Shown in pieces: positions 4,176-28,215 of a DNA stretch of 37,548 nucleotides. Every line of letters starts with the position of its first letter. The first letter of the stretch is position 1. The stretch is from a virus (lineage: Duplodnaviria; Heunggongvirae; Uroviricota; Caudoviricetes). A program made the translations under genes and the position numbers. The stretch is from IMG/VR virus record IMGVR_UViG_2636416131_000002; one strand, 5' to 3'. The notes beneath the pieces are model-generated. The model saw only the letters and a list, made by a program, of their open reading frames with translations, was not told the DNA's origin and ran no database searches.

Positions 4176-4232
4176 AAAAGGGCGGCAGAGCAGTCACGGA
4201 GTAAAACTGATACCGCCAAACGTCACCAGAAA
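4176..4232 (-). ncRNA. dicF: DicF small RNA (Hfq-dependent, ftsZ-targeting) with its intrinsic terminator
   Basis: Reverse complement of 4176-4232 reads TTTCTGGTGACGTTTGGCGGTATCAGTTTTACTCCGTGACTGCTCTGCCGCCCTTTTT, matching DicF as I recall it; GC stem followed by a U run. Confidence 0.9.
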
Positions 4233-8040: not shown

Positions 8041-9640
8041 AATGTCCCCAGACAATTCTCTGGGGGATTTTTCATGATCAAAGAGACTGTTACGATGAGT
8101 CATAAGGAACTCCACCGACTTCAGATTATTCAGGAGTCAATTAATCGACATATTACTCAGGAACAAGCTGCGGCACGCATTGGCATTTCTATTCGGCAGG
8201 TTAAACGTCTGGTGCAACGGTATAGAAATGAAGGGCCTTCTGGTCTGGTTTCCCACCGACGTGGAAAGCGTCCTAATAATTCCTTTTCTACTGAATTCAG
8301 AGCAACAGTAATTTCACTCCTCAAAGGCCGTTACGCTGATTTTGGACCTACGTTTGCGTGCGAAAAATTGCGCGAGATACACGGTTTATCTTTATCCGTT
8401 GAAACTCTCAGAAAGTGGATGATAGAAGAGGGGTTATGGCGTGAACGCCGTCGTAAAATTGCCCGTATATATCAACGCCGCATGCGACGACCATCTTACG
8501 GTGAACTGATCCAGATTGATGGCTCACCTCATGACTGGTTTGAAAATCGAGGCCCCAGATGTACACTGATCGTTTTCATTGATGATGCCACCAGTGCGTT
8601 GATGGCGTTGCGTTTTGTGCCTGCTGAAACAACCCGGGCTTACATGGAAACCCTCCGGGGTTACCTTAATGATCATGGCGTACCGCTCGCTCTCTACTCT
8701 GATAGACACAGTATATTCAGGGTAAATAACCCAGAGCGGGAAGGTGAGCTGACCCAGTTCACTCGTGCGATAAAGACACTGGGCATCGAGCCAATCCATG
8801 CCAACAGCCCGCAGGCAAAAGGGCGGGTAGAGCGCGCCAATCAGACACTACAGGACAGGCTGGTCAAAGAAATGCGGCTTCAGAATATCAGTGATATTGA
8901 AACAGCAAATGCATGGTTGCCGACCTTTATTGAAGCCTATAACAACCGGTTCGCTACGTCGCCTCGTACTACTGATAATGCTCATCTTGATGTGCACCAT
9001 TCTGAAGAGGAACTGGGTTATATCTTCAGCCTACAGGCGAAGCGCGTTCTGTCTAAAAATCTCACTTTCCAGTACAAAAGCAGTGCGTTTCAGGTACGCA
9101 GTGAGGGCCGGGGATATCGACTTAGGCATTCAGTTGTTACTGTATGTGAGAACTTTGACGGTGAAATTAACGTTCTGTATGACGGGAAAGCGCTGGGCTG
9201 GGAAAAGTATGTTGATGGCCCGGAGCCTATACCACTGGATGATGAAAAGAGTGTCCATGAACGAGTGGATAATGCCCGTATTGATTTACGCTCAAAATAC
9301 TATGTTAAATCTAAAGCTGACCATCCCTGCTTACGCGCCGAACGCAAAGTCATCAGTAAGTTAAGCCCCCGAAGTTACCTAAAAAGAAGCCTGATCCCGA
9401 TAAAATAGATTGAAACCAAGATCGATTCGGTTGAGTGCATATCCATTCATAGGGTAGATTCTTAAGTCGCGTTTCTGGTGTTCATTTTCGGGTGGTTTGT
9501 TACTTGTTTTACCGGGGATATGCCAGAAACGCGCTGAGTCAGTCTGGGCGGTGCGCGTAATGAGGCGTTATGGTAAATAGCCTATGCTAATGTCCGCTAA
9601 GAGCAAGAAGCGGAAGTTGGCAGTTTTGTGGACTGTCCCC
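8041..9640 (+). mobile_element. Insertion sequence carrying the 444-aa transposase; ends not resolved
   Basis: Transposase gene interrupts the replication / nin region. I could not identify terminal inverted repeats; TGTCCCCA occurs in direct orientation at 8043-8050 and 9634-9641 and might mark a target duplication. Boundaries are approximate. Confidence 0.3.
8074..9408 (+). CDS. DDE transposase (rve / integrase-core type), 444 aa, N-terminal HTH
   Basis: N-terminal HTH (ITQEQAAARIGISIRQVKRLVQRY), central integrase-core-like region with conserved D/E residues, size and layout typical of single-ORF IS481 / ISNCY-like elements. Family not resolved without search. Confidence 0.8.
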   Translation: MIKETVTMSHKELHRLQIIQESINRHITQEQAAARIGISIRQVKRLVQRYRNEGPSGLVSHRRGKRPNNSFSTEFRATVISLLKGRYADFGPTFACEKLREIHGLSLSVETLRKWMIEEGLWRERRRKIARIYQRRMRRPSYGELIQIDGSPHDWFENRGPRCTLIVFIDDATSALMALRFVPAETTRAYMETLRGYLNDHGVPLALYSDRHSIFRVNNPEREGELTQFTRAIKTLGIEPIHANSPQAKGRVERANQTLQDRLVKEMRLQNISDIETANAWLPTFIEAYNNRFATSPRTTDNAHLDVHHSEEELGYIFSLQAKRVLSKNLTFQYKSSAFQVRSEGRGYRLRHSVVTVCENFDGEINVLYDGKALGWEKYVDGPEPIPLDDEKSVHERVDNARIDLRSKYYVKSKADHPCLRAERKVISKLSPRSYLKRSLIPIK

Positions 9641-10384: not shown

Positions 10385-10690
10385 TTATCGACAGGTCAGG
10401 TCACCACTCACCCGCCGACGAGAAAGCAACACTGACATGCTAAAGCAAAAAATAGATGAATAAGTTGAGTTGTGCATATGTAGCCTGACCGTCACAAAGT
10501 ATATGGTGTCTGTACCAGTAAGATGATGGCCGGACTCTTTAAAAACGAGCTGACCTGCACAATACAGGATGGACTTAGCAATGGCTGCTCCTGGCACAAA
10601 GCGGACAGTGATCACCGTTCTTACGACTACTTTCTGACTTCCTTCGTGACTTGCCCTAAGCATGTTGTAGTGCGATACTTGTAATGACAT
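10385..10690 (-). CDS. YdfV-like ORF, 101 aa
   Basis: Length equals K-12 ydfV and position (between flxA and relB) agrees. Composition is not strongly protein-like and it overlaps the relBE promoter region. Confidence 0.3.
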   Translation of the reverse strand: MSLQVSHYNMLRASHEGSQKVVVRTVITVRFVPGAAIAKSILYCAGQLVFKESGHHLTGTDTIYFVTVRLHMHNSTYSSIFCFSMSVLLSRRRVSGDLTCR

Positions 10691-10703
10691 TTGTAATTAC
10701 AAG
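10677..10703. promoter_or_regulatory. relBE operator: palindrome CTTGTAAT…ATTACAAG
   Basis: ACTTGTAATGACATTTGTAATTACAAGA read directly, 12 nt upstream of the relB ATG. Confidence 0.6.
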
Positions 10704-10714
10704 AGGTGTAAGAC

Positions 10715-10954
10715 ATGGGTAGCATTAACCTGCGTATTGACGATGAACTTAAAGCGCGTTCTTACGCCGCGCTTGAAAAAATGGGTGTAACTCCTTCTGA
10801 AGCGCTTCGTCTCATGCTCGAGTATATCGCTGACAATGAACGCTTGCCGTTCAAACAGACACTCCTGAGTGATGAAGATGCTGAACTTGTGGAGATAGTG
10901 AAAGAACGGCTTCGTAATCCTAAGCCAGTACGTGTGACGCTGGATGAACTCTGA
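10715..10954 (+). CDS. relB: RelB antitoxin, 79 aa
   Basis: MGSINLRIDDELKARSYAALEKMGVTPSEALRLMLEYIADNERLPF…; stop overlaps the relE start. Confidence 0.9.
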   Translation: MGSINLRIDDELKARSYAALEKMGVTPSEALRLMLEYIADNERLPFKQTLLSDEDAELVEIVKERLRNPKPVRVTLDEL

Positions 10955-11241
10955 TGGCGTATTTTCTGGATTTTGACGAGCGGGCACTAAAGGAATGGCG
11001 AAAGCTGGGCTCGACGGTACGTGAACAGTTGAAAAAGAAGCTGGTTGAAGTACTTGAGTCACCCCGGATTGAAGCAAACAAGCTCCGTGGTATGCCTGAT
11101 TGTTACAAGATTAAGCTCCGGTCTTCAGGCTATCGCCTTGTATACCAGGTTATAGACGAGAAAGTTGTCGTTTTCGTGATTTCTGTTGGGAAAAGAGAAC
11201 GCTCGGAAGTATATAGCGAGGCGGTCAAACGCATTCTCTGA
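10954..11241 (+). CDS. relE: RelE mRNA-interferase toxin, 95 aa
   Basis: MAYFLDFDERALKEWRKLGSTVREQLKKKL…RLVYQVIDEKVVVFVISVGKRERSEVY, translationally coupled to relB. Confidence 0.9.
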   Translation: MAYFLDFDERALKEWRKLGSTVREQLKKKLVEVLESPRIEANKLRGMPDCYKIKLRSSGYRLVYQVIDEKVVVFVISVGKRERSEVYSEAVKRIL

Positions 11242-11312
11242 ACCAAAGCATGACATCTCTGTTTCGCACCGAAGGTGACACTTCTGCTTTGCGTTGACAG
11301 GAGAAGCAGGCT

Positions 11313-11468
11313 ATGAAGCAGCAAAAGGCGATGTTAATCGCCCTGATCGTCATCTGTTTAACCGTCATAGTGACGGCACTGGTAACGAGGAAAGACCTCT
11401 GCGAGGTACGAATCCGAACCGGCCAGACGGAGGTCGCTGTCTTCACAGCTTACGAACCTGAGGAGTAA
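11313..11468 (+). CDS. hokD: HokD (RelF) Hok-family membrane toxin, 51 aa; below the ORF-track size cutoff
   Basis: Translated by hand: MKQQKAMLIALIVICLTVIVTALVTRKDLCEVRIRTGQTEVAVFTAYEPEE, third gene of the relBEF operon. Confidence 0.85.
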   Translation: MKQQKAMLIALIVICLTVIVTALVTRKDLCEVRIRTGQTEVAVFTAYEPEE

Positions 11469-11536
11469 GAGACCCGGCGGGGGAGAAATCCCTCGCCACC
11501 TCTGATGTGGCAGGCATCCTCAACGCACCCGCACTT

Positions 11537-14519: not shown

Positions 14520-14732
14520 TCATGAAAGGTAAACATTGGCAGCTGAAGGGCCACGCAGACCATTTATCCGGCAAAATTCCACGCGTAATCCGGTGGTAAT
14601 TTCTTCTGCATCGCGGAGATTGAGCGCTGAAACATGAAGCTGGACATCGATACGACCATCGGATGGGGTGATAAGACCCTTGCCGCTTTTGCCGTCAAAG
14701 GTTTTGACAATTCCTGTCATTTTACGGGACAA
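14520..14732 (-). CDS. cspF: Cold-shock protein CspF, 70 aa
   Basis: [41 protein letters not shown]…, CspA-family fold. Confidence 0.9.
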
Positions 14733-15032
14733 AAAAATTCCTTAATACTGATAACTTGGCGCACTATACACACGTTCCTGAAGAAAGCTATAGTTTTTTG
14801 ATGGGGTTGAAGATGGCTGGATGTCTAAAATAAACATTGCTTCATATGTTCAACTATGCGTTAATGATTGCGTCGGTTTGAAGAACAGACGATATACGAA
14901 GTAGTTTACTAAAGCAGTTCTCATTTCAGGTGTTATTCATTTATTCCTTCTTTGAGTCTCTCCAATTAAGTACGAAGTCGTTTCTGTTATGCAAACCATT
15001 TATGCCGAAAGGCTCAAGTTAAGGAATGTAGA

Positions 15033-15248
15033 ATGTCAAATAAAATGACTGGTTTAGTAAAATGGTTTAACGCTGATAAAGGTTTCGGCTTTATTTCTCC
15101 TGTTGATGGTAGTAAAGATGTGTTTGTGCATTTTTCTGCGATTCAGAATGATAATTATCGAACCTTATTTGAAGGTCAAAAGGTTACCTTCTCTATAGAG
15201 AGTGGTGCTAAAGGTCCTGCAGCAGCAAATGTCATCATTACTGATTAA
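15033..15248 (+). CDS. cspB: Cold-shock protein CspB, 71 aa
   Basis: [71 protein letters not shown]. Confidence 0.95.
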
Positions 15249-15528
15249 AATTCATCGCTCGTCTGTATACGATAACGAAGAAGGCTGATGCCTGAGTAGA
15301 GATACGGACAGAGTAGTGAATATTGGATTTCTTTAATAAAAATTAAGGAGGTCCAATACATGAAACAATGGCCAGCATATTTGGCAAAATCTTAATCAGG
15401 AAAAGTATGCTAACCATTGTGGTGAAGTGCAGGTTTGCTGCATGAATAGTTTTACAGCAGAAGCTAACTGCTGGCATGGCAAAACAAAGTGCGTAAGTGG
15501 ATGACTCCCACAAAAAGCACCACAATCT

Positions 15529-15556
15529 CAAACCCGCTCAGGCGGGTTTTTTATTA
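15529..15556 (+). terminator. Intrinsic terminator about 280 nt downstream of cspB
   Basis: AACCCGC-TCAG-GCGGGTT followed by TTTTATT. Confidence 0.7.
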
Positions 15557-15611
15557 TCTGCTTTAAATATATTATTAAAATATAAAAAATACTTGTTACT
15601 AATAAAATCAA

Positions 15612-15782
15612 TCAGGCTACAGCTTTAAGATTTGTCTGGAATACTTTGTTGCAATGAGGGCAGATCAAAAGGGCACCTTTTTGTACTCTTGAAAAACTGT
15701 GTTCTGACTCTTGGGTGCAGTTTGGGCAGGAACATTTAACGAGATAATTACGGCGTGATTTTGAGTCTTTACGTTCTGACAT
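15612..15782 (-). CDS. Small zinc-ribbon protein, 56 aa (CxxC…CxxC)
   Basis: From the internal ATG with an AGGA ribosome-binding site: MSERKDSKSRRNYLVKCSCPNCTQESEHSFSRVQKGALLICPHCNKVFQTNLKAVA. Sits in the moron island between cspB and the holin. Confidence 0.45.
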   Translation of the reverse strand: MSERKDSKSRRNYLVKCSCPNCTQESEHSFSRVQKGALLICPHCNKVFQTNLKAVA

Positions 15783-16001
15783 AGGCTTTTCCTGTATAAA
15801 TGGCCGTATACAGTACACTAAATATGAAAACATTTCTCGTATTATTATTTTATATATGACTTTCTTTCAAAATAATTACTCACATTTTTAATGTGTATGT
15901 TTCTTTAGCGCCGTTGAGAACAGCGTGTGCTGTCAAAACTACCCCGTAGACTCCGATCTTTTCAAACATATTGCACCATCCGTGTACATCGGGGTGAGGA
16001 T

Positions 16002-16217
16002 ATGAAATCAATGGATAAGTTAACAACAGGTGTTGCCTATGGCACATCGGCGGGTAATGCTGGTTTCTGGGCATTGCAGTTACTCGATAAAGTAACTCCG
16101 TCACAGTGGGCTGCAATCGGTGTGCTGGGTAGCCTGGTTTTTGGCCTGCTGACGTATCTGACAAATCTTTATTTCAAGATTAAAGAAGACAGGCGTAAGG
16201 CTGCGAGAGGAGAGTAA
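16002..16217 (+). CDS. essQ: Phage-21-type class II holin (pinholin) with dual-start motif, 71 aa
   Basis: [53 protein letters not shown]…; Met1-Lys-Ser-Met4 dual start, two transmembrane helices. Confidence 0.85.
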
Positions 16218-16221
16218 TCCA

Positions 16222-16529
16222 ATGACTCAAGACTATGAACTGGTTGTGAAAGGAGTCCGTAATTTTGAGAATAAAGTTACGGTAACTGTAGCCTTACAGG
16301 ACAAAGAACGCTTTGACGGTGAAATTTTTGACCTGGATGTCGCCATGGACCGTGTTGAAGGAGCTGCGCTGGAGTTTTATGAGGCAGCAGCCAGAAGGAG
16401 CGTCCGGCAAGTCTTCCTGGAAGTAGCAGAAAAATTGTCAGAAAAAGTTGAGTCTTATCTGCAGCATCAGTACTCCTTTAAGATTGAAAATCCTGCCAAT
16501 AAGCACGAGCGTCCTCATCATAAATATAT

Positions 16530-16533
<4 letters not shown>
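16222..16533 (+). CDS. ydfR: YdfR-like protein, 103 aa
   Basis: 103-aa ORF between holin and endolysin, same length and position as Qin ydfR. Confidence 0.65.
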
Positions 16534-17557
<1,024 letters not shown>

Positions 17558-17921
17558 GGTAATATTAAATCGGAACATTTACATCGCGGAATGTAAAATT
17601 TAAATAAAAAGGACTCTTCCATGAGCCAAAATTCCTGAAATCTTAAGGGTAAGATAAAAGGTCTTAATCAGAATGACACGTTATTATTAATAAATAAAGC
17701 TATTCTTTCATTGCTGTGTTTTTCTTTACAAAAGTAATCCTTGCTATGGGTGGTTAATCATGCGTTAATGGTGTTCTGGTTTGTTACAAATTTATCTGAA
17801 GCAGTCATTGTTATAATTTTATTATTTGTACCTCTTGAGATTTCCTTGTTGGTTTTTCTCTCTGATATTTTTTTTTCGGACCATTCTGCCCAAGGGCTAA
17901 TTTCTTCAAAAGGTAATAATT

Positions 17922-18134
17922 ATGTCTAACAAAATGACTGGTTTAGTGAAATGGTTTAACCCTGAAAAAGGTTTTGGTTTCATCACGCCGAAAGATGGCA
18001 GCAAAGATGTGTTTGTCCATTTCTCAGCAATTCAGAGCAACGATTTCAAAACATTAACTGAGAATCAGGAAGTTGAATTTGGTATTGAGAACGGACCTAA
18101 AGGTCCTGCCGCTGTTCATGTAGTGGCGCTTTGA
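17922..18134 (+). CDS. cspI: Cold-shock protein CspI, 70 aa
   Basis: [70 protein letters not shown]. Confidence 0.95.
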
Positions 18135-18339
18135 GGTAGACAATATTACAAACCATATTCACTTTAGATGCCCGTGTTGTCATGGTTCCCAGTATAGAAC
18201 ATCATCTTTTGATGTTTCTGACATGAATCCTTTCGGGGCAAAATGTATCTTTTGTAAATCAATGATGATTACATTTGATAATATTTCACAATACTTAAAT
18301 GCCAGCCGTCTGTCGTTGGATTTAAAAAAGTGAAAATGA

Positions 18340-18362
18340 AGGCTCCTTCGGGAGCTTTTTTG
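18340..18362 (+). terminator. Intrinsic terminator about 200 nt downstream of cspI
   Basis: GCTCC-TTCG-GGAGC stem-loop followed by TTTTTT. Confidence 0.7.
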
Positions 18363-18405
18363 CTTGGTATCTATTCGATGGATACTCACATACTACGGTA
18401 ACATC

Positions 18406-18636
18406 ATGAAAAAAATCATAGTTTTTTTTAACTCTGAACCAGCAGTGGTAGTGCCAGCGATGACTGGAGTTAACACCATCATGCGTGAATATCCAAATGG
18501 CGAAAAAACACACCTTACTGTAATGGCCGCAGGGTTTCCATCTCTGACCGGAGATCATAAAGTCATTTATGTAGCCGCGGATCGACATGTTACTTCAGAA
18601 GAAATTCTGGAAGCAGCAATAAGGCTCTTGAGTTGA
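18406..18636 (+). CDS. Hypothetical protein, about 76 aa
   Basis: ORF with balanced composition (MKKIIVFFNSEPAVVVPAMTGVNTIMREYPNGEK…) but no convincing ribosome-binding site at either the ATG (18406) or the upstream TTG (18364). Confidence 0.3.
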   Translation: MKKIIVFFNSEPAVVVPAMTGVNTIMREYPNGEKTHLTVMAAGFPSLTGDHKVIYVAADRHVTSEEILEAAIRLLS

Positions 18637-18804
18637 TTTGATGCTATTGTATTGATAATTCAGGAAAATTCTCTTTGTCTGTTTGTGTAAAATTTAGACT
18701 ATCGTATGTTGATTATTGCGATGTTTCATCTTATCTTTTACACGTTTGCACCATATAATCGACTTACTGTGTAACTGGAAAGTCATAACAGACTAAAAGA
18801 GGAA

Positions 18805-18981
18805 ATGATGAATATTGAAAACTTAAAAACAAAAGCAGAAGCAGATATTTCTGAATATATAACAAAAAAAATTATTGAACTTAAGAAAAAGACCGGGAAA
18901 GAAGTTACCAGTATTCAGTTTACCGCACGGGAAAAAATGACGGGTCTTGAAAGCTATGATGTCAAGATTAATTTAATCTGA
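18805..18981 (+). CDS. gnsB: GnsB-like small protein (Gns family), 58 aa; below the ORF-track size cutoff
   Basis: Translated by hand: MMNIENLKTKAEADISEYITKKIIELKKKTGKEVTSIQFTAREKMTGLESYDVKINLI; AAGAGGA ribosome-binding site. Confidence 0.8.
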   Translation: MMNIENLKTKAEADISEYITKKIIELKKKTGKEVTSIQFTAREKMTGLESYDVKINLI

Positions 18982-19132
18982 TGTATTCAATAATAAAATT
19001 TATCCATAAACCTCGTTTTTACGGGGTTTTGTTATATTTGAATGGTTCCGAATATCTAAATCACAATTGTTGATGGTTTTTATTAAACCAATGCAGTCCG
19101 GCTCAGGAGTGAGAGAAGCCGGACGTTATGGT

Positions 19133-19543
19133 TTAGCGTGGTAAGATCTGTGTAGTTTTCTGGATGCTTTCAGTAAATAGTAATGAGTTATCAAAGGCAT
19201 AGTAATATCTTTGGTGTTCCTGGATATTTGTAACCCATCGGAAAACTCCTGCTTTAGCAAGATTTTCCCTGTATTGTTGAAATGTGATTTCTTTTGATTT
19301 CAACTTATTATAGGAGGTCTCTATAAGATGTTTGTTTCTGGAGAATTTAACATTTACAACCTTTTTGAGTCCTTTTACTAACACTATGTTGTCGTTTTCT
19401 AACACAATGTGAATATTATCTGTGGCTAAATAGTAAATATAAAGTGAGATATTGTGACGTTTTAGCTCAGAATAAAATAATTCACAGTTTAAATCTTTAC
19501 GCACTTGATCGAATATTTCTTTAAAAATGGCAGCCTGAGCCAT
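19133..19543 (-). CDS. ydfO: YdfO-like DUF1398 protein, 136 aa
   Basis: [31 protein letters not shown]…, length matches K-12 YdfO. An upstream in-frame ATG at 19558 is also possible. Confidence 0.8.
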
Positions 19544-19843
19544 TGGTAAACCTTCCATGTGATACGATGGCGCGTAGTTTGCATTATCGTGTTTATTGTT
19601 TCAATCTGGTCTGACCTCTTTGTGTTTTGTTGATGATTTATGTCAAATATTAAGCCTGTTTTTAATGAATAGTGTTGATTGCGTAACAAAATTGAGCCTT
19701 GCTGGCATCCAGGAGGGATATGCAACCGACAGATGTATGTAAGGTCGATGTACTCAAACTTTCATACTTTTCCTCTTTTATGCAGTAAGATTTGAAGTAA
19801 TATTTTAACCGCTAGATGACGAGCAAACGCATGGAGCGACAAA

Positions 19844-20050
19844 ATGAATAAAGAACAATCTGCTGATGAACTCTCGTTGGATCTGATTCGTGTAAAAAAT
19901 ATGCTTAATAGCACCATTTCTATGAGTTACCCGGATGTTGTAATTGCATGTATAGAACATCAGGTGTCTCTGGAAGCATTCAGGGCAATTGAGGCAGCGT
20001 TGGTGAAGCACGATAAGAATTCGAAGGATTATTCCCTGGTGGTTGACTGA
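19844..20050 (+). CDS. Hypothetical small protein, 68 aa (YnfO-like position)
   Basis: ORF between ydfO and the cos region with a weak GGAG ribosome-binding site. No family recognised. Confidence 0.35.
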
Positions 20051-20366
20051 GCACCATAACTGCTAATCATTCAAACTATTTCACCTGTGACAGAGTCAAT
20101 ATCGCATTCTGTCACTGTCAGGCTAATACAGAGCTGCAATTCAACTACTGCAATGTCCTCGTAATTAGGTGAATTTACAATATCGTCCTGTTCGGATGCC
20201 GGCTGCATTGCTGAAGATGAGGCATTTATGGTTCGCATATTTTCCCCTCATGCTCGTCAGTCCTGTGCGTAGGAAGAAACAGGACACTCACACTAATTTG
20301 TGTGGGCATGCTGTGATGTCCTTCTGAATTATTCCTATGCCATTATGTAAAGCGCTGTATCAGATG

Positions 20367-20400
20367 CTCGTCACGGCTGTCAGGCTGTCAGGCTGTCGGG
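20367..20400. repeat. Tandem GGCTGTCA repeats (three copies), part of a wider scatter of CTGTCA motifs from about 20086
   Basis: TCACGGCTGTCAGGCTGTCAGGCTGTCGGG read directly; further CTGTCAC / CTGTCAG / GTGACAG motifs at 20086-20135. Candidate terminase small-subunit binding sites. Confidence 0.45.
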
Positions 20401-20425
20401 TCCTCCCGGTGGGGGCCCCTGCCAC

Positions 20426-20443
20426 GGGGCGGGAGCGTCGCGG
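20426..20443. other. Candidate cos cleavage site, GGGGCGGGAGCGTCGCGG
   Basis: GC-rich island in an AT-rich intergenic region about 180 nt upstream of the terminase small-subunit ATG. 13 of 17 positions match the lambda left end GGGCGGCGACCTCGCGG as I recall it. Confidence 0.45.
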
Positions 20444-20622
20444 AAAAAGGCTAGTTTTTGCATTTCCATGGCGGCGGCAGCATGTTTGGTAATTTATTGA
20501 TAATTAAAAGTTATTTCTCTTTTTACCTGTACAATATTTTTTTCTCCCTGTCATTAGATCAGTTTACAATTAATTGAAATATATAAATAAACATGATTTT
20601 CACCTGCCAGATGGAGTTGCTT

Positions 20623-21150
20623 ATGTCAAATGTGAGCGGGATCGGTGATGCTTATTACTGGAGTGTTTTTAAAATCGCTGAGGCCTTTGGGCTTCACCGG
20701 GACACAGTAAAAAAACGGCTTCTCGCGGCCAACACTCCTGTGGCTGCGACTGTCAGGGGGAACCCCGTTTACGCCCTGCAGCATGTCGGGCCAGCCCTGT
20801 TTAGTGTGAAGCATGAGGCAGCAGACTCTGTTCATGATCCATCCCGTATGGAGCCGAAAGAGAGAAAGGACTGGTACCAGTCTGAAAATGAAAGGATCAA
20901 GCTGGAAAAGGAGCAGCGAAAACTCATCCCCGTTGATGAAGTAGTCATCGTCTATTCGTCCATGAGAAAGGCTGTCGTCCAGGTTCTGGAGACAATTCCG
21001 GATGTTCTTGAACGCGATTGCGCCCTGACTCCTCAGGCCGTCGGCGTTGTACAGCAGGCAATTGATGACCTGCGATACACTCTTCAGGAAAAATCCTACG
21101 AGGCTTGTGCTGCTGAATTAATTCCTGATGAGGAAGGAGAGAGTCTCTAG
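20623..21150 (+). CDS. Terminase small subunit, about 175 aa
   Basis: Directly upstream of the large terminase and downstream of the cos-like region. Start taken at the ATG with a GGAG ribosome-binding site (ORF track starts at 20593). Confidence 0.6.
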   Translation: MSNVSGIGDAYYWSVFKIAEAFGLHRDTVKKRLLAANTPVAATVRGNPVYALQHVGPALFSVKHEAADSVHDPSRMEPKERKDWYQSENERIKLEKEQRKLIPVDEVVIVYSSMRKAVVQVLETIPDVLERDCALTPQAVGVVQQAIDDLRYTLQEKSYEACAAELIPDEEGESL

Positions 21151-21158
21151 GAGGAATA

Positions 21159-23258
21159 ATGGGTTTTTCATCAGCCCGAAATTTGGGAAGGGACATATCG
21201 GCAGGATTTTCCCCACCACGTCGCATGCCGATTTCGGAGGCTGTTAAAAAATTCATGCGTGTTCCCAAGGGGGCTGGTAACTCGGTGCCATGGGATCCTG
21301 AACTGACACCCTACATCATTGAGCCCATGAACTGCCTGGCATCGCGTGAATACGATGCGGTGATTTTTGTTGGTCCTGCGCGAACAGGGAAGACCATTGG
21401 TCTGATCGATGGATGGATTGTCTATACCATCGTTTGCGATCCTTCGGACATGCTCGTTGTGCAGATGACCGAAGATAAGGCCCGCGAGCATTCTAAAAAG
21501 CGCCTCGACAGAACGTTCAGAAGCAGTGCGGCGGTAAAGAAAAGAATGAGTCCACGTCGTAACGACAATAATGTCCATGATAAGACGTTCAGGGATGGCT
21601 CGTTCCTTAAAATTGGTTGGCCCTCGGTCAACATTATGTCGTCGTCGGATTACCGGTTTGTCGCCTTAACCGATTACGACCGTTTTCCGGAGAATATCGA
21701 CAGCGAGGGTGATGGTTTCTCCCTGGCCTCAAAACGTACCACCACATTTATGTCCGCCGGGATGACTCTGGTGGAGAGCTCGCCGGGACGTGACATCTGC
21801 GACAGCAAATGGCGACGTAAGTCGCCTCATGAAGCGCCACCGACGACTGGTATTCTTTCCCTTTACAATCGTGGTGACCGCCGCCGCTGGTACTGGTCAT
21901 GTCCGCACTGCGGTGAATATTTTCAGCCAGCCATGGATGCCATGACCGGCTACCGTAATGAACCGGATCCCTTTAAAGCCAGTGAGGCGGCGTATCTACT
22001 TTGCCCGCACTGCAGCGGCATTATCACTGCGGAGAAAAAGCGTGAGCTCAATAGTGCAGGAGTCTGGTTGCGTGAAGGTCAGGTCATTGATCGTAACGGC
22101 AACGTTTCCGGTGAACCGCGCCGCTCCCGTATCGCCAGTTTCTGGATGGAAGGGCCAGCTGCTGCGTATCAGACCTGGGCGCAACTGGTTTACAAATTAC
22201 TGACTGCAGAACAGGAGTATGAAGCGACAGGAAGCGAAGAAACACTCAGGGCGGTTATCAACACCGACTGGGGATTGCCTTATCTTCCTCGTGCCAGCAT
22301 GGAGCAACGAAAAAGTGAACTGCTTGAGCAGCGGGCAGAGCCAGTTCCTTCCCGCAGTGTGCCGGATGGCATTAATTTCCTTGTGGCGACAGTGGATGTG
22401 CAGGCGGGACGTCATCGCCGTTTTGTGGTTCAGGTAACGGGCTATGGCAGTCGTGGCGAACGCTGGATTATTGATCGTTACAACATCACGCAGTCATTGC
22501 GCAGTGACTGCGACGGGGAGAGCCAGCGAATTGATCCGGCCAGCTATCCGGAAGACTGGGATGTCCTGCTGACGGATGTTTTTCATAAAAGCTGGCCGCT
22601 GGCCTCCGATCCTTCTCAACAAATGCGACTGATGGCAATGGCGGTGGACTCCGGCGGTGAAGACGGGGTCACTGATAATGCCTATAAATTCTGGCGTCGT
22701 TGCCGTCGTGATGGCCTTGGTAAACGTATTTACCTGTTTAAGGGTGACAGCATCCGGCGCGCAAAACTGATCAGCCGTACATTCCCTGATAACACCGGAC
22801 GAACGGGCCGCCGGGCGCAGGCCGCAGGTGATGTGCCGCTCTGGCTTCTTCAGACGGATGCCCTGAAAGACCGGGTGAATAACGCGTTATGGCGTGACTC
22901 GCCAGGTCCAGGCTATGTGCATTTCCCTGACTGGCTGGGGAGCTGGTTTTACGACGAACTGACGTATGAAGAGCGGAGCAGTGACGGGAAATGGAGTAAG
23001 CCGGGTCGCGGTGCCAACGAAGCTTTTGACCTGATGGTGTATGCCGAGGCTCTGGTCATTCTGCATGGATACGAAAAGATCCGCTGGCCGGATGCACCGG
23101 AGTGGGCGAGCCGGGAAACCTGGCTGGAGTGTGTCCAGGACAGTACTGAACCGTCATCCTCACCGGAACCGGTATCCACGCCTGTTAAAAAACAAAAACG
23201 GAAGAAAACAGTAACTGACGATGTTAACCCCTGGCTGACTTCCGGAGGATGGTTATGA
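21159..23258 (+). CDS. Terminase large subunit (lambda gpA family), 699 aa
   Basis: Walker A VGPARTGKT, size and N-terminal ATPase / C-terminal nuclease layout of gpA-type terminases; AGGAGG ribosome-binding site. Confidence 0.9.
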   Translation: MGFSSARNLGRDISAGFSPPRRMPISEAVKKFMRVPKGAGNSVPWDPELTPYIIEPMNCLASREYDAVIFVGPARTGKTIGLIDGWIVYTIVCDPSDMLVVQMTEDKAREHSKKRLDRTFRSSAAVKKRMSPRRNDNNVHDKTFRDGSFLKIGWPSVNIMSSSDYRFVALTDYDRFPENIDSEGDGFSLASKRTTTFMSAGMTLVESSPGRDICDSKWRRKSPHEAPPTTGILSLYNRGDRRRWYWSCPHCGEYFQPAMDAMTGYRNEPDPFKASEAAYLLCPHCSGIITAEKKRELNSAGVWLREGQVIDRNGNVSGEPRRSRIASFWMEGPAAAYQTWAQLVYKLLTAEQEYEATGSEETLRAVINTDWGLPYLPRASMEQRKSELLEQRAEPVPSRSVPDGINFLVATVDVQAGRHRRFVVQVTGYGSRGERWIIDRYNITQSLRSDCDGESQRIDPASYPEDWDVLLTDVFHKSWPLASDPSQQMRLMAMAVDSGGEDGVTDNAYKFWRRCRRDGLGKRIYLFKGDSIRRAKLISRTFPDNTGRTGRRAQAAGDVPLWLLQTDALKDRVNNALWRDSPGPGYVHFPDWLGSWFYDELTYEERSSDGKWSKPGRGANEAFDLMVYAEALVILHGYEKIRWPDAPEWASRETWLECVQDSTEPSSSPEPVSTPVKKQKRKKTVTDDVNPWLTSGGWL

Positions 23259-23467
23259 ACCAGAATGATATCGAAGCCATGATTCAGCGTTATACGGAAG
23301 CTGAAATGGCGGTGCTGGACGGAAAATCCGTCACTTTTAATGGTCAGCAGATGACCATGGAAAACTTATCTGAGATCCGGCAGGGACGGCAGGAGTGGGA
23401 GCGCCGCCTTGCGGCTCTGATTACACGACGACGGGGGCATCCCGGGTACCGGCTGGCGAGGTTCTGA
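23255..23467 (+). CDS. Head-tail joining protein (lambda gpW-like), 70 aa
   Basis: Small ORF between terminase and portal, the position of lambda W. Start overlaps the terminase stop (ATGA); stop overlaps the portal start. Confidence 0.6.
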   Translation: MNQNDIEAMIQRYTEAEMAVLDGKSVTFNGQQMTMENLSEIRQGRQEWERRLAALITRRRGHPGYRLARF

Positions 23468-24975
23468 TGGCAATTCTTGATGATGTGATTGGCGTTTTTT
23501 CACCAGGATGGAAAGCGGCAAGGCTGCGTTCCCGTGCGGTGATCCAGGCTTATGAGGCCGTAAAAACGACACGGACACACAAAGCCCGGCGGGAAAACCG
23601 AACTGCCGACCAGTTAAGCCAGTACGGGGCCGTGTCGTTACGTGAGCAGGCCCGTTACCTTGATAACAACCACGATCTGGTTATTGGTGTATTTGACAAG
23701 CTGGAAGAACGGGTGGTGGGGAAAAACGGGATTATTGTCGAGCCACATCCGGTATTACGCAATGGGGCCATTGCCCGTGATCTGGCAGCGGAGATACGCA
23801 CCCGATGGAGTGAATGGTCTGTCAGTCCGGAAGTCACCGGGCAGTTTACCCGTCCGATGCTGGAACGTCTGATGCTGCGTACCTGGCTGCGCGATGGTGA
23901 GGTGTTTGCCCAGATGGTTTCCGGGCGCATAAACAGCCTGACGCCTTCTGCCGGTGTTCATTTCTGGCTGGAGGCGCTCGAGCCGGACTTTATTCCCATG
24001 ACCAGTGATGAGAGCAACAGGCTGAATCAGGGCGTGTTTGTTGATGACTGGGGGCGTCCCGAAAAATATCTGGTGTATAAAAGCCGTCCCGTATCCGGGC
24101 GGCAGATGGAAACCAAAGAAGTGGATGCAGAGCGAATGCTGCATCTTAAATTTGTTCGCCGTCTGCACCAGATGCGCGGGACGTCTTTGTTGTCCGGTGT
24201 GCTGATCCGCCTCAGTGCCCTGAAAGAGTATGAAGATTCTGAGCTGACTGCAGCAAGGATCGCCGCTGCTCTGGGGATGTACATCCGGAAAGGCGACGGG
24301 CAGAGCTATGAACCGGATGGTAATGGCAGCAAGGAGAATGAACGCGAGCTTACCATTCAGCCAGGCATTATTTACGACGATCTGAAACCCGGCGAAGAAA
24401 TCGGAATGGTGAAGTCGGATCGTCCCAATCCTAACCTTGAAACTTTTCGTAATGGTCAGTTGCGTGCCGTGGCGGCGGGCAGTCGTCTGAGTTTTTCCAG
24501 TACGGCACGCAACTATAACGGCACTTACAGCGCCCAGCGTCAGGAGCTGGTTGAATCCACTGATGGCTACCTGATCCTGCAGGACTGGTTTATTGGTGCC
24601 GTCACCCGCCCGATGTATCGTGCCTGGCTGAAACAGGCTGTGGCATCCGGTGTTATCAGGCTACCCCGCGATCTTGATCGTTCTTCACTGTATACCGCGG
24701 TGTATTCCGGACCGGTGATGCCGTGGATTGACCCTGTTAAGGAGGCTGAGGCCTGGAAAATTCAGATTCGTGGTGGAGCGGCGACAGAATCAGACTGGGT
24801 ACGTGCAGGTGGTCGTAATCCGGATGATGTCAAACGTCGGCGCAAGGCCGAAATTGATGAAAACCGCAAGCTGGATCTGGTATTTGATACCGATCCGGCC
24901 AGTGATAAAGGAGGCAGCAGTGCCGCAACGAAACGACAGGAGCCGCAGCACACCGACGACCAGTCCGAAGAATAA
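23467..24975 (+). CDS. Portal protein (lambda gpB family), about 502 aa
   Basis: Size and position after terminase and W; start chosen at the ATG overlapping the W stop (ORF track starts upstream at 23395). Confidence 0.8.
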   Translation: MAILDDVIGVFSPGWKAARLRSRAVIQAYEAVKTTRTHKARRENRTADQLSQYGAVSLREQARYLDNNHDLVIGVFDKLEERVVGKNGIIVEPHPVLRNGAIARDLAAEIRTRWSEWSVSPEVTGQFTRPMLERLMLRTWLRDGEVFAQMVSGRINSLTPSAGVHFWLEALEPDFIPMTSDESNRLNQGVFVDDWGRPEKYLVYKSRPVSGRQMETKEVDAERMLHLKFVRRLHQMRGTSLLSGVLIRLSALKEYEDSELTAARIAAALGMYIRKGDGQSYEPDGNGSKENERELTIQPGIIYDDLKPGEEIGMVKSDRPNPNLETFRNGQLRAVAAGSRLSFSSTARNYNGTYSAQRQELVESTDGYLILQDWFIGAVTRPMYRAWLKQAVASGVIRLPRDLDRSSLYTAVYSGPVMPWIDPVKEAEAWKIQIRGGAATESDWVRAGGRNPDDVKRRRKAEIDENRKLDLVFDTDPASDKGGSSAATKRQEPQHTDDQSEE

Positions 24976-24988
24976 TTCCTGGTTCAGG

Positions 24989-26947
24989 ATGCAGGCAGGT
25001 CACCAGAGTGACGCGGATATTTATATTTATGACGAGATTGGTTTCTGGGGTGTTACAGCGAAGCAGTTTATCAGTGATCTGAATGCACTGGGCGATATCA
25101 CCCACATTAATCTCCATATTAATTCACCGGGTGGCGATGTCTTTGAAGGCATCGCCATTTTTAATGCACTGAAAACACATGGTGCGTCCATTACCGTTTA
25201 TGTCGACGGTGTGGCGGCGTCAATGGCGTCGGTCATTGCGATGGTGGGAAACCCGGTCATTATGCCGGAAAACTCCTTCATGATGATTCATAAACCATTT
25301 GGCTTTACGGGCGGTGATGCGGAGGACATGCGCACCTATGCCGACCTGCTCGATAAAGTTGAGGCGGTTCTGTTACCCGCTTATGCACAGAAAACCGGGA
25401 AAACCACCGATGAAATTGCTGCCATGCTGGCGGATGAGACCTGGATGTCCGGTGCCGAATGTCTGGCACAGGGATTTGCTGATCAGGTGACACCAGCCGT
25501 TAAGGCAATGGCATGTATTCAGTCAAAACGTACAGAGGAATTTAAAAAGATGCCGGAATCCATTCGAAACATGATTACTCCGCCACGCAACAGTGCTCCA
25601 CGCGTACAGGATGATGAACCTGCAGCCTCCCGGACGCCAGTGCAGGCAGCAGCACCCGTGGTGGATGAAAACAGTATCCGTGCGCAGGTACTGGCAGAGC
25701 AAAAAGCGCGTGTAAACGGTATTAATGATCTGTTTGCCATGTTTGGCGGGCGTTATCAGACGCTGCAGGCCCAGTGTCTTGCCGATCCTGAATGTTCGCT
25801 GGAGCAGGCCCGTGAAAAGCTGTTGAACGAGATGGGGCGCGAGTCCACGCCATCCAATAAAAATACCCCGGCTCATATTTATGCCGGTAACGGTAATTTT
25901 GTGGGGGACGGGATTCGCCAGGCGCTGATGGCGCGTGCCGGATTTGAAAAAACCGAACGTGATAATGTCTACAACGGGATGACCCTGCGTGAATATGCCC
26001 GTATGTCACTAACTGAACGGGGTATTGGGGTTTCCGGTTATAACCCGATGCAGATGGTCGGTGCGGCGTTCACACACAGTACGTCTGACTTCGGTAATAT
26101 TCTGCTGGATGTTGCGAACAAAGCCATTCTGCAGGGCTGGGAAGATGCCCCTGAAACCTATGAACAGTGGACGCGGAAAGGTCAGTTGTCTGATTTTAAA
26201 ATTGCCCATCGTGTGGGTATGGGGGGCTTCAGTGCTCTGCGTCAGGTGCGTGAAGGGGCGGAATATAAATACGTCACCACCGGAGATAAACAGGCCACTA
26301 TTGCACTGGCGACCTATGGCGAGCTGTTCAGTATCACCCGTCAGGCCATTATCAATGATGATCTGAATATGCTGACCGATGTCCCGATGAAACTGGGCCG
26401 TGCGGCGAAATCCACTATTGCCGATCTGGTTTATGCCATTCTGACGTCTAACCCGAAAATCTCCACAGATAATGTAAGTCTGTTCGATAAAGCGAAACAT
26501 GCAAACGTACTGGAGAGCGCTGCAATGGACGTGGCATCGCTGGATAAAGCCCGCCAGTTGATGCGCGTTCAGAAAGAGGGGGAGCGTCATCTGAATATTC
26601 GTCCTGCGTTCGTACTGGTACCGACGGCGATGGAGTCTGTTGCTAACCAGGTCATTCGCTCCTCAAGTGTCAAGGGGGCTGACATTAACGCCGGTATTAT
26701 TAACCCGGTGAAAGATTTTGCGACCGTTATTGCAGAGCCTCGTCTTGATGATAACAGCCAGACCACCTTCTACCTGGCTGCGTCAAAAGGCTCCGATACG
26801 ATTGAAGTGGCTTATCTCAACGGTGTGGATACGCCATATATTGATCAGATGGAGGGCTTCAGTGTGGATGGCGTGACAACGAAAGTGCGTATTGACGCCG
26901 GTGTCGCGCCAGTTGATCACCGCGGTCTGGTGAAATGTACGGCGTAA
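24989..26947 (+). CDS. Fused prohead protease (ClpP / S49-like) and major capsid protein, about 652 aa
   Basis: N-terminal ~200 aa look like a ClpP-family serine protease (INSPGGDVFEGIAIFNALKTHGASITVYVDGVAASMASVIAMVG). C-terminal ~300 aa look like a major capsid protein. One continuous frame with no stop. ORF track starts at 24728 inside the portal gene; 24989 is the first ATG after the portal stop. Confidence 0.75.
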   Translation: MQAGHQSDADIYIYDEIGFWGVTAKQFISDLNALGDITHINLHINSPGGDVFEGIAIFNALKTHGASITVYVDGVAASMASVIAMVGNPVIMPENSFMMIHKPFGFTGGDAEDMRTYADLLDKVEAVLLPAYAQKTGKTTDEIAAMLADETWMSGAECLAQGFADQVTPAVKAMACIQSKRTEEFKKMPESIRNMITPPRNSAPRVQDDEPAASRTPVQAAAPVVDENSIRAQVLAEQKARVNGINDLFAMFGGRYQTLQAQCLADPECSLEQAREKLLNEMGRESTPSNKNTPAHIYAGNGNFVGDGIRQALMARAGFEKTERDNVYNGMTLREYARMSLTERGIGVSGYNPMQMVGAAFTHSTSDFGNILLDVANKAILQGWEDAPETYEQWTRKGQLSDFKIAHRVGMGGFSALRQVREGAEYKYVTTGDKQATIALATYGELFSITRQAIINDDLNMLTDVPMKLGRAAKSTIADLVYAILTSNPKISTDNVSLFDKAKHANVLESAAMDVASLDKARQLMRVQKEGERHLNIRPAFVLVPTAMESVANQVIRSSSVKGADINAGIINPVKDFATVIAEPRLDDNSQTTFYLAASKGSDTIEVAYLNGVDTPYIDQMEGFSVDGVTTKVRIDAGVAPVDHRGLVKCTA

Positions 26948-26970
26948 ACGTCGCAGACAACAACTCTGAT

Positions 26971-26990
26971 GGCCCGTAAGGGCTTTTTTT
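26971..26990 (+). terminator. Short hairpin plus T7 run after the capsid gene
   Basis: GGCCC-GTAA-GGGC followed by TTTTTTT, then a second hairpin CAGCCCC-TGAA-CGGGGCTG at 27003-27021. Confidence 0.4.
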
Positions 26991-27033
26991 GTACCTGAAA
27001 TCAGCCCCTGAACGGGGCTGTGCGGAGACAGTT

Positions 27034-27357
27034 ATGGCAAAGAATTTTGTAGAAGAAGGAAAAACGGTGGCGATTGTTGCCAGTGCAGCCATCAGCAGCG
27101 GAGATCTGGTGCAGGTGGGCGATGTTTTTGCGGTGGCGCTGACCGATATTCCACAGGGTGAAACAGGCGACGGCATGACCGAAGGTGTGTTTATGCTGCC
27201 TAAGCTGAAAACGGATGACATGAAAACGGGTAAGAAGGTTTATCTGAAGTCCGGAAAAGTTCAGCTGACTAACAGCGGCTCTGATCCGCTGGTCGGGGTT
27301 GTCTGGGCAGATGCCGGAACCAGTGCAGAAGAAGTGCCGGTAAAACTCAATGTCTGA
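27034..27357 (+). CDS. Small head protein, about 107 aa (possible decoration-like / DUF2190-type)
   Basis: GGAG ribosome-binding site before the ATG at 27034; position directly after the major capsid gene. Family guess from memory only. Confidence 0.45.
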   Translation: MAKNFVEEGKTVAIVASAAISSGDLVQVGDVFAVALTDIPQGETGDGMTEGVFMLPKLKTDDMKTGKKVYLKSGKVQLTNSGSDPLVGVVWADAGTSAEEVPVKLNV

Positions 27358-27625
27358 TCCCTTTTCCCGGCTGGCAGCGCGTATGGATGCTATCACGGTT
27401 AGAAAGATGGGAAAGACAGCCTCGATTAATGATGTCGATATGACTGTGATCCCGGGAGAAACACTGGCAGAGCTGAATGCTCTGTCCGGACCTGCGGTCT
27501 CTCTGGTGGTGTTTTCTTCGGGATACCGCCCACGGCGCGGGGATCGCGTTGTTTATGACGGACAACAATGGACGGTCACACGGCATGAACGTTTTAACGG
27601 TAAGCCAATGATCTTTATTGAGTAA
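27350..27625 (+). CDS. Head-tail connector (lambda FII-like position), 91 aa
   Basis: Small protein between head and tail genes, overlapping the previous ORF; contains an RRGD motif as in lambda FII. Confidence 0.45.
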   Translation: MSDPFSRLAARMDAITVRKMGKTASINDVDMTVIPGETLAELNALSGPAVSLVVFSSGYRPRRGDRVVYDGQQWTVTRHERFNGKPMIFIE

Positions 27626-27636
27626 AGAGGTGTGGG

Positions 27637-28215
27637 ATGAAGGGGCTTGAGAATGCCATCCGTAATCTGAACAGCCTTGATACCCGTATGGTGCCACAGG
27701 CCAGCGCATGGGCGATAAACCGTGTGGCACAGAAAGCGGTCTCGGTCGCCACCCGGCAGGTTGCCGGGAATACCGTTGCGGGAGATAACCAGGTGAAAGG
27801 GATCCCCCTGAAACTGGTACGTCAGCGTGTCCGGGTGTTTAAAGCCAGTCCGTCAGGAAAAATGACGGCCAGGATCCGCGTTAACCGGGGCAATCTGCCC
27901 GCTATTAAGCTGGGGACAGCCCGGGTCAGACTGGCCCGGCGTGGTGGAAAACTGCAGTACCGTGGCAGTGTGCTGAAGGTGGGTAAATATCTTTTCCGGG
28001 ATGCGTTTATTCAGCAACTGGCGAATGGTCGCTGGCATGTGATGCGGCGTATTGATGGCAAAAATCGTTACCCCATTGATGTGGTGAAAGTCCCGCTGTC
28101 CGGACAGCTGACACAGGCATTTGAAGATGCCCGCGACCGCATTATTGCTGCGGAAATGACGAAACAGCTGGGGTATGCACTGAAACAACAACTGAGGTTA
28201 TGGCTGACCCGATGA
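27637..28215 (+). CDS. Z: Tail completion protein Z (lambda gpZ-like), 192 aa
   Basis: Same length as lambda Z; conserved segments (MKGLE…LNSL…; NGRWHVM…GKNRYPIDVVK; LGYAL…QL); AAGAGG ribosome-binding site. Confidence 0.8.
   Translation: MKGLENAIRNLNSLDTRMVPQASAWAINRVAQKAVSVATRQVAGNTVAGDNQVKGIPLKLVRQRVRVFKASPSGKMTARIRVNRGNLPAIKLGTARVRLARRGGKLQYRGSVLKVGKYLFRDAFIQQLANGRWHVMRRIDGKNRYPIDVVKVPLSGQLTQAFEDARDRIIAAEMTKQLGYALKQQLRLWLTR

Follow-up and report, generated by a model that had tools for sequence, protein, structure and literature searches.

The question raised by this locus is whether a GC-rich island lying ahead of the terminase genes in an IMG/VR virus record (IMGVR_UViG_2636416131_000002; the window, i.e. 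the whole analysed stretch of 37,548 nucleotides) is the cohesive-end (cos) site of a lambda-like phage, and whether the repeats upstream of it take part in packaging. The original prediction had read the island as a candidate lambda-type cos site, and three tandem repeat units together with several inverted CTGTCAC/GTGACAG copies as possible recognition elements for the small terminase. The results presented here make it highly probable that the segment 20398-20622 is the cos of a Qin/Tritos-like lambdoid prophage, laid out on the plan cosQ-cosN-I2-cosB-terS, and that the repeats stand outside this machinery. The predicted elements and the genes that follow them are listed below, with signed positions counted from the predicted top-strand nick.

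20398-20404, + strand: cosQ, GGGTCCT, the exact lambda heptamer; predicted packaging-termination signal by homology to lambda
20422-20443: cosN, CCACG/GGGCGGGAGCGT/CGCGG, 16/22 identity to lambda cosN
20444-20460, + strand (bp +18 to +34): I2-like segment AAAAAGGCTAGTTTTTG, with A5/T5 runs of poly-dA and poly-dT
20461-20489, + strand: proximal cosB, CATTTCCAT and then the type-specific GGCGGCGGCAGCATGTTTGG (+43 to +62), where lambda has R3
20490-20502, - strand (+64 to +76): IHF-consensus site TATCAATAAATTA, the I1 equivalent, an exact match to the consensus
20503-20622, + strand: distal cosB, AT-rich, approximately 20% GC
20520-20529 and 20597-20606, + strand: candidate R-like elements TTTTTACCTG and TTTTCACCTG, i.e. 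TTTT(T/C)ACCTG twice
20546-20556, + strand: candidate R-like element CCTGTCATTAG, invariant among the type 1 variants examined
20623-21150, + strand: terS, small terminase, DUF1441 family, 175 aa (Pfam DUF1441, E = 1.9e-44)
21159-23258, + strand: terL, large terminase, gpA family, 699 aa (Pfam GpA_ATPase 4.2e-80, GpA_nuclease 4.4e-86)
23249-23467, + strand: head-tail adaptor gene (PHROG 118)
23467-24975, + strand: lambda-family portal gene (Pfam Phage_portal_2 7.1e-82; PGAP on the 100% identical STEC409 locus)

The island itself, the string GGGGCGGGAGCGTCGCGG at 20426-20443, has its 3' end 180 nt short of the terS start codon (20623), in agreement with the distance originally proposed. GC content, taken in 100-nt windows, reached 0.68 in 20350-20449 and was 0.20-0.33 immediately 3' and 0.40-0.47 on the 5' side, such that the description of a GC-rich island within AT-rich DNA is accurate for the downstream flank only, because upstream GC is still 0.40-0.47. 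Alignment to the lambda cos region, which had been proposed as a check, returned 16/22 identical positions in cosN (lambda, TTACG/GGGCGGCGACCT/CGCGG) and the exact cosQ heptamer; the junctions align as GGGTCCTTTCCGGTGATCCGACAGGTTACG/GGGCGGCGACCT/CGCGGGTTTTCGC in lambda and GGGTCCT-CCCGGTGGGGGCCCCTGCCACG/GGGCGGGAGCGT/CGCGGAAAAAGGC in the window. By analogy, the top strand would be nicked at 20426/20427 and the bottom strand at 20438/20439, leaving predicted 12-nt 5' cohesive ends that correspond to 20427-20438, GGGCGGGAGCGT. Within the cohesive end there are four mismatches to lambda, at positions 7, 8, 9 and 11, and natural cohesive-end variation among lambda-like phages is limited to bp 7-12, with the flanking CG pairs kept (Feiss et al., PMC4669245). 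The 7-bp cosQ is likewise highly conserved among these phages (PMC4669245). In the window, GGGTCCT lies at -29 to -23 from the top-strand nick, compared with -30 to -24 in lambda. No second + strand copy exists anywhere in the 37,548 nt, and the heptamer stands precisely 29 nt 5' of the single CGGGGCGG that leads into CGCGG. The cos-like core is thus far above chance. Wieczorek and Feiss reportedly placed lambda cosQ at bp 48473-48479 in 2001. A literature search with the 12-mer GGGCGGGAGCGT retrieved human-gene papers only and nothing relevant.

Two deposited phage genomes also begin at exactly the base that follows the predicted nick. Megablast placed the start of the cdtI record (AB285204 / NC_009514) at window position 20427, and the record of Tritos (OV696610) runs up to 20426 and starts at 20427, although in both cases the record ends were possibly set by analogy with lambda; the Tritos paper contains no mention of cos (PMC9928086). 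In phage LLS, which also has a DUF1441 TerS, the first 12 bases (GGGCGGCGCGCT) are annotated as a single-stranded 5' cohesive extension. Phage mEp460 was considered as a counter-example, its record starting 55 bp before the TerS match, and was set aside since that record simply begins at the annotated terS ATG; the mEp460 cosQ-cosN sequence is found approximately 160 bp before the end of the record.

Downstream of the island, the gene order of terS, gpA-family terL, adaptor and lambda-family portal was assigned with Pfam and PHROG. The terS start is preceded by a Shine-Dalgarno sequence (GGAG, 20613-20616) 6 nt before the ATG, is the start that both PGAP and the Tritos record adopt, and lies at +197 from the nick, compared with +191 for Nu1 of lambda (PMC9026076). 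The terS product matched PHROG 141, 'terminase small subunit' (E = 7.9e-65), is 100% identical to the 'putative small terminase subunit' of cdtI and approximately 40% identical to the TerS of Gifsy-2 and mEp460; BLASTP against Nu1 was not significant (E = 4.6), with the aligned stretch falling on the Nu1 HTH region. There was no PDB sequence relative of TerS and no NCBIfam match for TerS or TerL, and a single-sequence AlphaFold model of TerS (pLDDT 44.6) was unusable and was kept out of the fold search. The terL product (PHROG 15) aligned over its full length with lambda gpA at 24% identity (E = 5e-22), so that an identical nick chemistry is a presumption at this level of similarity. The terS, terL and portal genes are full-length, and an intact packaging module is supported by proxy: the module is very probably competent because Tritos, which is prophage 3 of E. 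coli LF82, produces virions and plaques (PMC9928086) and is 99% identical to the window over 14530-27912.

Conservation around the nick was surveyed in two samples. The first was obtained by scanning IMG/VR with a 21-mer around the nick, yielding more than 120 loci, and the second was chosen by TerS protein (99-100% identical) and is thus unbiased for cos sequence, comprising 79 loci with enough upstream DNA. A conservation profile over 99 distinct sequences in ungapped register, in which -4 to +17 were fixed by the search pattern and the rest was free, delimited a near-invariant block that opens with the first G of GGGTCCT at -29 and closes at +34, with conservation collapsing on either side. 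In the sample chosen by TerS, cosN was located 195-196 nt before the terS ATG in 79/79 loci, the 12-mer was identical in 77/79, and GGGTCCT was at -29 in 76/79. To the left of cosQ the same-cosN loci are mosaic, falling into at least six unrelated sequence classes, which include a pre-cos module with two or three 8-mers, a lambda-like sequence GATAATCA...TTT in cdtI, and a rho-independent terminator hairpin directly abutting GGGTCCT. Beyond +34 the sequences fall into three cosB classes, and a different DUF1441 TerS accompanies each; types 2 and 3 resemble mEp460, and their TerS is approximately 41% identical to that of the window. These profiles point to an invariant cosQ-cosN-I2 core (-29 to +34) placed between exchangeable left modules and at least three cosB/TerS cassettes. 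Packaging specificity would accordingly appear to be borne by cosB and TerS over a shared cosQ/cosN/I2 core, an arrangement analogous to that of lambda and phage 21, which share a core and differ in cosB/TerS specificity (PMC4669245).

The I2-like segment is common to all cosB types and near-invariant to +34 over the 99 distinct sequences; its lambda counterpart spans bp 18-50, is AT-rich with poly-dA/dT and is required for termination (PMC4856287, PMC4669245). In lambda-like phages the TerS sites are found in cosB, between cosN and terS (PMC4669245, PMC9026076), and the true TerS sites of this phage should by the same reasoning lie in cosB, at 20461-20622. The GGCGGCGGCAGCATGTTTGG segment, which occupies the place of lambda R3 (bp 50-65; PMC9026076) and differs among the three cosB/TerS types between conserved flanks, is a candidate primary TerS site. 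The adjacent match at 20490-20502 is the only exact instance of the IHF consensus WATCAANNNNTTR within the 37.5 kb; cosB types 2 and 3, like phage LLS, have an equivalent site with 0-1 mismatch at +62 to +76, in the same orientation. Candidates for R repeats in this cosB were limited to the TTTT(T/C)ACCTG pair, of which TTTTCACCTG forms an exact 10-mer pair in the commonest type 1 variants, and CCTGTCATTAG, none of them convincing. A contig scan for diverged TerS relatives, for use in cosB footprinting, recovered two loci. In a Trabulsiella locus (TerS 57% identical) the layout is R-IHF-inverted-R, but its R word is a different one and did not transfer to the window cosB, for which the locus was rejected as a guide.

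The remaining features lie upstream of cosQ and comprise the two groups of repeats that had been taken as candidate recognition elements, along with the non-coding DNA that contains them:

20052-20196, + strand: non-coding block 3' of a ybcW-like gene, 87% identity to lambda J02459 47946-48090
20087-20094 and 20108-20115: inverted repeat GTGACAGA / TCTGTCAC, a perfect 8-bp pair
20228-20397, + strand: non-coding pre-cos module, approximately 170 bp, with a hairpin-like repeat GTCCTGT...ACAGGAC at 20259-20285
20375-20382, 20383-20390 and 20391-20398, + strand: 8-mer array of units GGCTGTCA, GGCTGTCA and GGCTGTCG (TRF)

The three tandem units upstream of the island are present as originally reported, and TRF scored them as the sole array in 19500-21200 (20370-20397, period 8, 3.4 copies, score 47). 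The array occupies -52 to -29, its last G being the first G of cosQ, and since it sits just outside the conserved core, changes in unit number leave the cosQ-cosN spacing intact. Such changes are frequent. Among loci with the same cosN, 0 units were found in 35, 1 unit in 4, 2 units in 73 and 3 units in 9; among the loci with 99-100% identical TerS (n = 79), the corresponding counts were 25, 0, 44 and 10. No array is present in phage cdtI, whose TerS is 100% identical and whose cosB is the same; HannyBb has two units with an identical TerS, and Tritos matches the window in carrying three. Every unit number is found with more than one cosB/TerS type. For types 1 and 2 alike, 0, 2 and 3 units were recorded, and for type 3, 0 and 2 units. 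The array is most simply read as a slipped-strand copy-number polymorphism in a putatively dispensable spacer.

For the CTGTCAC/GTGACAG copies, the evidence supports one perfect inverted pair and a direct CTGTCA (20115-20120) that overlaps it, 'several' having been a generous count. Both arms are conserved in an alignment with lambda and HannyBb, with a variable loop, and the pair lies upstream of cosQ at about -340 to -312. The counterpart of the block in lambda is located about 410-550 bp before lambda cosN, and the complete lambda cos fits within a 238-bp fragment (bp 48446-182; PMC4856287); the 20052-20196 block accordingly lies outside cos here as well. As the inverted repeat belongs to a lambda-homologous block outside the functional cos, and Nu1 is unlike this TerS, the repeat is not a shared TerS site. 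RNA folding of 20060-20200 gave a non-significant z = -1.4. Two further repeats were examined and discarded, namely a 26-nt repeat at 20156-20181 / 20545-20570 (77%) and a third TTTCACCTG at 20079, both of which are consistent with chance by a rough estimate and are conserved in neither HannyBb nor lambda.

That the upstream GGCTGTCA units and the CTGTCAC/GTGACAG copies are small-terminase binding sites from which packaging starts is, given these distributions, exceedingly improbable. The window contains more CTGTCA than expected (30 sites, compared with 18.3 +/- 3.6 in shuffles), and the word is locally enriched, with seven copies within 20088-20755, although these seven are not independent because they include the tandem duplication and the inverted pair. 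TerS could conceivably recognise the word, as an invariant CTGTCA is present in cosB at 20548-20553, in a position like that of lambda R1; this is the sole copy within cosB, forms part of CCTGTCATTAG, and, if any CTGTCA touches TerS, would be the one to do so, outside the stretch that the original prediction had covered. The upstream repeats, however, are on the wrong side of cosN and outside the -29 to +34 block, at a distance from the cosN-terS interval in which lambda-like TerS sites reside (PMC4669245, PMC9026076). The array is missing from 25/79 loci with the same TerS, cdtI included, and arrays of 0-3 units are distributed without regard to which of the three cosB/TerS types accompanies them. 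As for the inverted repeat, lambda has it too, at a place outside its functional cos, and lambda Nu1 has no sequence relationship to this TerS. Position within cosB, conservation alongside the same TerS and co-variation with TerS type, as expected of R elements, are seen for neither the array nor the CTGTCAC repeats.

The pre-cos module invites a different reading, in which the module and array form an accessory cis-element that might be bound by a host or phage protein modulating packaging termination or processivity, protect the right DNA end, or act within the late transcript. The module is always placed directly against cosQ, occurs in roughly two thirds of related phages whatever the TerS type, and is approximately 80% identical between window-like and mEp460-like lineages (63 distinct sequences aligned), across which certain stretches and a 7-bp stem (GTCCTGT/ACAGGAC) do not vary. 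This conservation is high for a spacer and therefore leaves room for an accessory role. Coding does not explain it: the module is without a conserved reading frame because indels of 1, 3 and 8 nt separate the lineages, and the small ORFs at 20071-20238 (- strand), 20169-20327 and 20337-20492 were rejected as genes on the same ground of non-conserved frames, with no Pfam match and one marginal PHROG match of unknown function among the spacer ORFs. Against an accessory role, at least six unrelated classes replace the module next to the same cos core and TerS, among them the terminator hairpin and inducible cdtI, in which the module is lost and lambda-like sequence stands instead, and the repeat number is unstable, as slippage predicts. 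Rfam returned no match in the region (gathering thresholds over the whole window; E <= 5 over 19700-20700), folding of 20225-20400 gave a non-significant z = -1.6, and a promoter and terminator scan of 19600-20800 found one weak promoter-like site and no terminator, not above shuffles. An accessory cis-element of any of these kinds is thus very unlikely, and there is only a slim chance that the module, including its variable array, tunes the termination cut or processivity or acts at the right virion end and travels with the cos core; the module is better regarded as a putative dispensable mosaic spacer. A further alternative, unlikely although less so, is that the site is an intact but idle relic of a defective prophage, with a cos that stays uncut unless a related helper phage supplies the functions. 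Qin-type prophages are often cryptic. This prophage copy may never be induced, because its early region differs from that of Tritos and carries an IS-transposase pseudogene (a truncated IS1202-like element beside O-like and DUF977 genes, within an early/replication region unlike Tritos). The packaging, head and tail ORFs in the window are nevertheless all full-length and share 95-99% identity with their counterparts in Tritos, which forms plaques, and the relic alternative bears on the activity of this copy rather than on the identity of the sequence.

As to the wider genomic context, window 20200-20650 (451 bp) is 100% identical to part of a lambdoid, Qin-like prophage in E. coli STEC409. The genes of that prophage include an integrase, dicB/DicF, a cI/cro-like pair, relBE, hokD, an antiterminator resembling Q, csp genes and those of a lysis cassette, followed by a stretch of 570 bp that PGAP leaves unannotated, and finally by late genes for the DUF1441 protein, large terminase, portal, protease-capsid fusion and tail. 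The cos module was matched in 2112/5426 complete E. coli genomes. In the proposed sequence of events, the DUF1441 TerS would bind cosB (20461-20622) on concatemeric DNA, aided by an IHF-induced bend at 20490-20502, and would place the gpA-family TerL on cosN, where nicks at the two predicted positions would generate the 12-nt 5' ends. Packaging would then run rightwards with the terS end first until, at the next cos, cosQ (20398-20404) together with cosN and I2 would trigger the terminating cut. The array would merely adjoin the outer side of cosQ with no part in the machinery, and the CTGTCAC inverted repeat, 340 bp upstream, would belong to the separate lambda-homologous non-coding block.

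Compared with lambda, the locus shares the cosQ heptamer, a cosN with the GGGCGG left half, the flanking CG pairs and the 12-nt frame, an I2 with A/T runs, a cosB with an IHF site, a comparable terS start (+197, as against +191), a TerL of the gpA family and a lambda-family portal. It differs in that cosQ is 1 bp nearer the nick, the cohesive end departs from that of lambda at the four positions given above, TerS is of the DUF1441 family and without significant similarity to Nu1 by BLASTP, cosB is without the lambda R sequence, and TerL is only distantly related to gpA (24%). Phages cdtI and Tritos have the same cosQ, cosN, I2, type 1 cosB and TerS as the window and differ from it in their early regions, cdtI additionally in having lambda-like sequence in place of the pre-cos module and no GGCTGTCA array. 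Gifsy-1/Gifsy-2, mEp460, LLS and further lambda-like phages with a DUF1441 TerS share the TerS family (approximately 40% identity) and the cosQ-cosN-I2 layout, with GGGCGGGAGCGG in mEp460, the annotated cohesive end GGGCGGCGCGCT in LLS, and an IHF-like site at approximately +62 to +76. The lambda-like cos phages with a cosB ordered R3-I1-R2-R1 include Gifsy-1 (PMC4669245, PMC9026076). The cosB sequences of this group differ from that of the window and contain TTCGACAC-type R-like repeats, which the window lacks, and packaging specificity is presumably different because cosB differs, as between lambda and phage 21.

The site is already known, both in kind and in sequence, as the ends of the cdtI and Tritos records, and its value is principally for annotation: it supplies the predicted genome ends (20427 on the left and 20438 on the right) and the packaging direction for this prophage family, within a stretch that automated annotation passes over, and the conspicuous repeats should not be labelled as terminase sites. 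Were the accessory reading of the pre-cos module true, such a module could be passed on, together with the cos core, among phages of unrelated TerS specificity. Conceptually not new, and of mild interest to packaging specialists, the arrangement extends the lambda / phage 21 paradigm to phages with DUF1441 terminases.

Among the window and the IMG/VR loci that share its cosN (L008-L127), the cosQ-cosN-I2 core, from -29 to +34 relative to the predicted top-strand nick (window 20398-20460), is identical amid differing flanks, and its edges are the exact positions of the recombination joints. On the right, this core is joined to cosB/TerS (DUF1441) cassettes of at least three kinds, and on the left at least six mutually unrelated modules adjoin it. 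In the window the left-hand module is a non-coding block of about 170 bp, which contains the following element:

20259-20285, hairpin-like repeat GTCCTGT-N12-ACAGGAC

The arms of this repeat are invariant between lineages, while the loop differs in both length and sequence.

In a diverged relative from Trabulsiella guamensis (L129 bases 570-815; TerS identity 57%), cosN differs from that of the window and the cosQ-like variant is GGTACTCC. Its cosB looks like an R / IHF / inverted-R unit duplicated in tandem (GGGACACC...TTATTGA...TTTGAGGTGGG, twice).

On contig L128 (JAGZPX010000007.1), whose label is that of a Veillonella parvula MAG, the E. coli prophage cos is present together with a terS that is 99% identical, which is probably a binning error. 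The record of phage mEp460_4F5 (L217, LR595868.1) begins with the CCACG of cosN, and its bases 1-30 hold the cohesive-end region without 3 nt (GGGCGGGAGCG-CGG), a gap that looks like an assembly artefact at the cohesive ends.

Elsewhere in the window, the following features were annotated:

4180-4231 (-), DicF antisense sRNA
10716-11469 (bases 10517-11270 of compared record L135), relBE and hokD toxin-antitoxin morons
14872-15264 (+) and 17775-18161 (+), two cspA-type thermoregulator leaders, 5' of cspB and cspI

DicF and cspA-type leaders are typical of Qin-like prophages, and the morons are situated within the late-regulatory region. The O-like and DUF977 genes are adjoined by a transposase pseudogene (~8074-9144; L135 7875-8945), which is truncated and IS1202-like (ISEsa1 family). 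Because of this pseudogene, and because the early region has only short patches in common with that of the plaque-forming phage Tritos, the prophage copy in the window may be defective in replication or induction.
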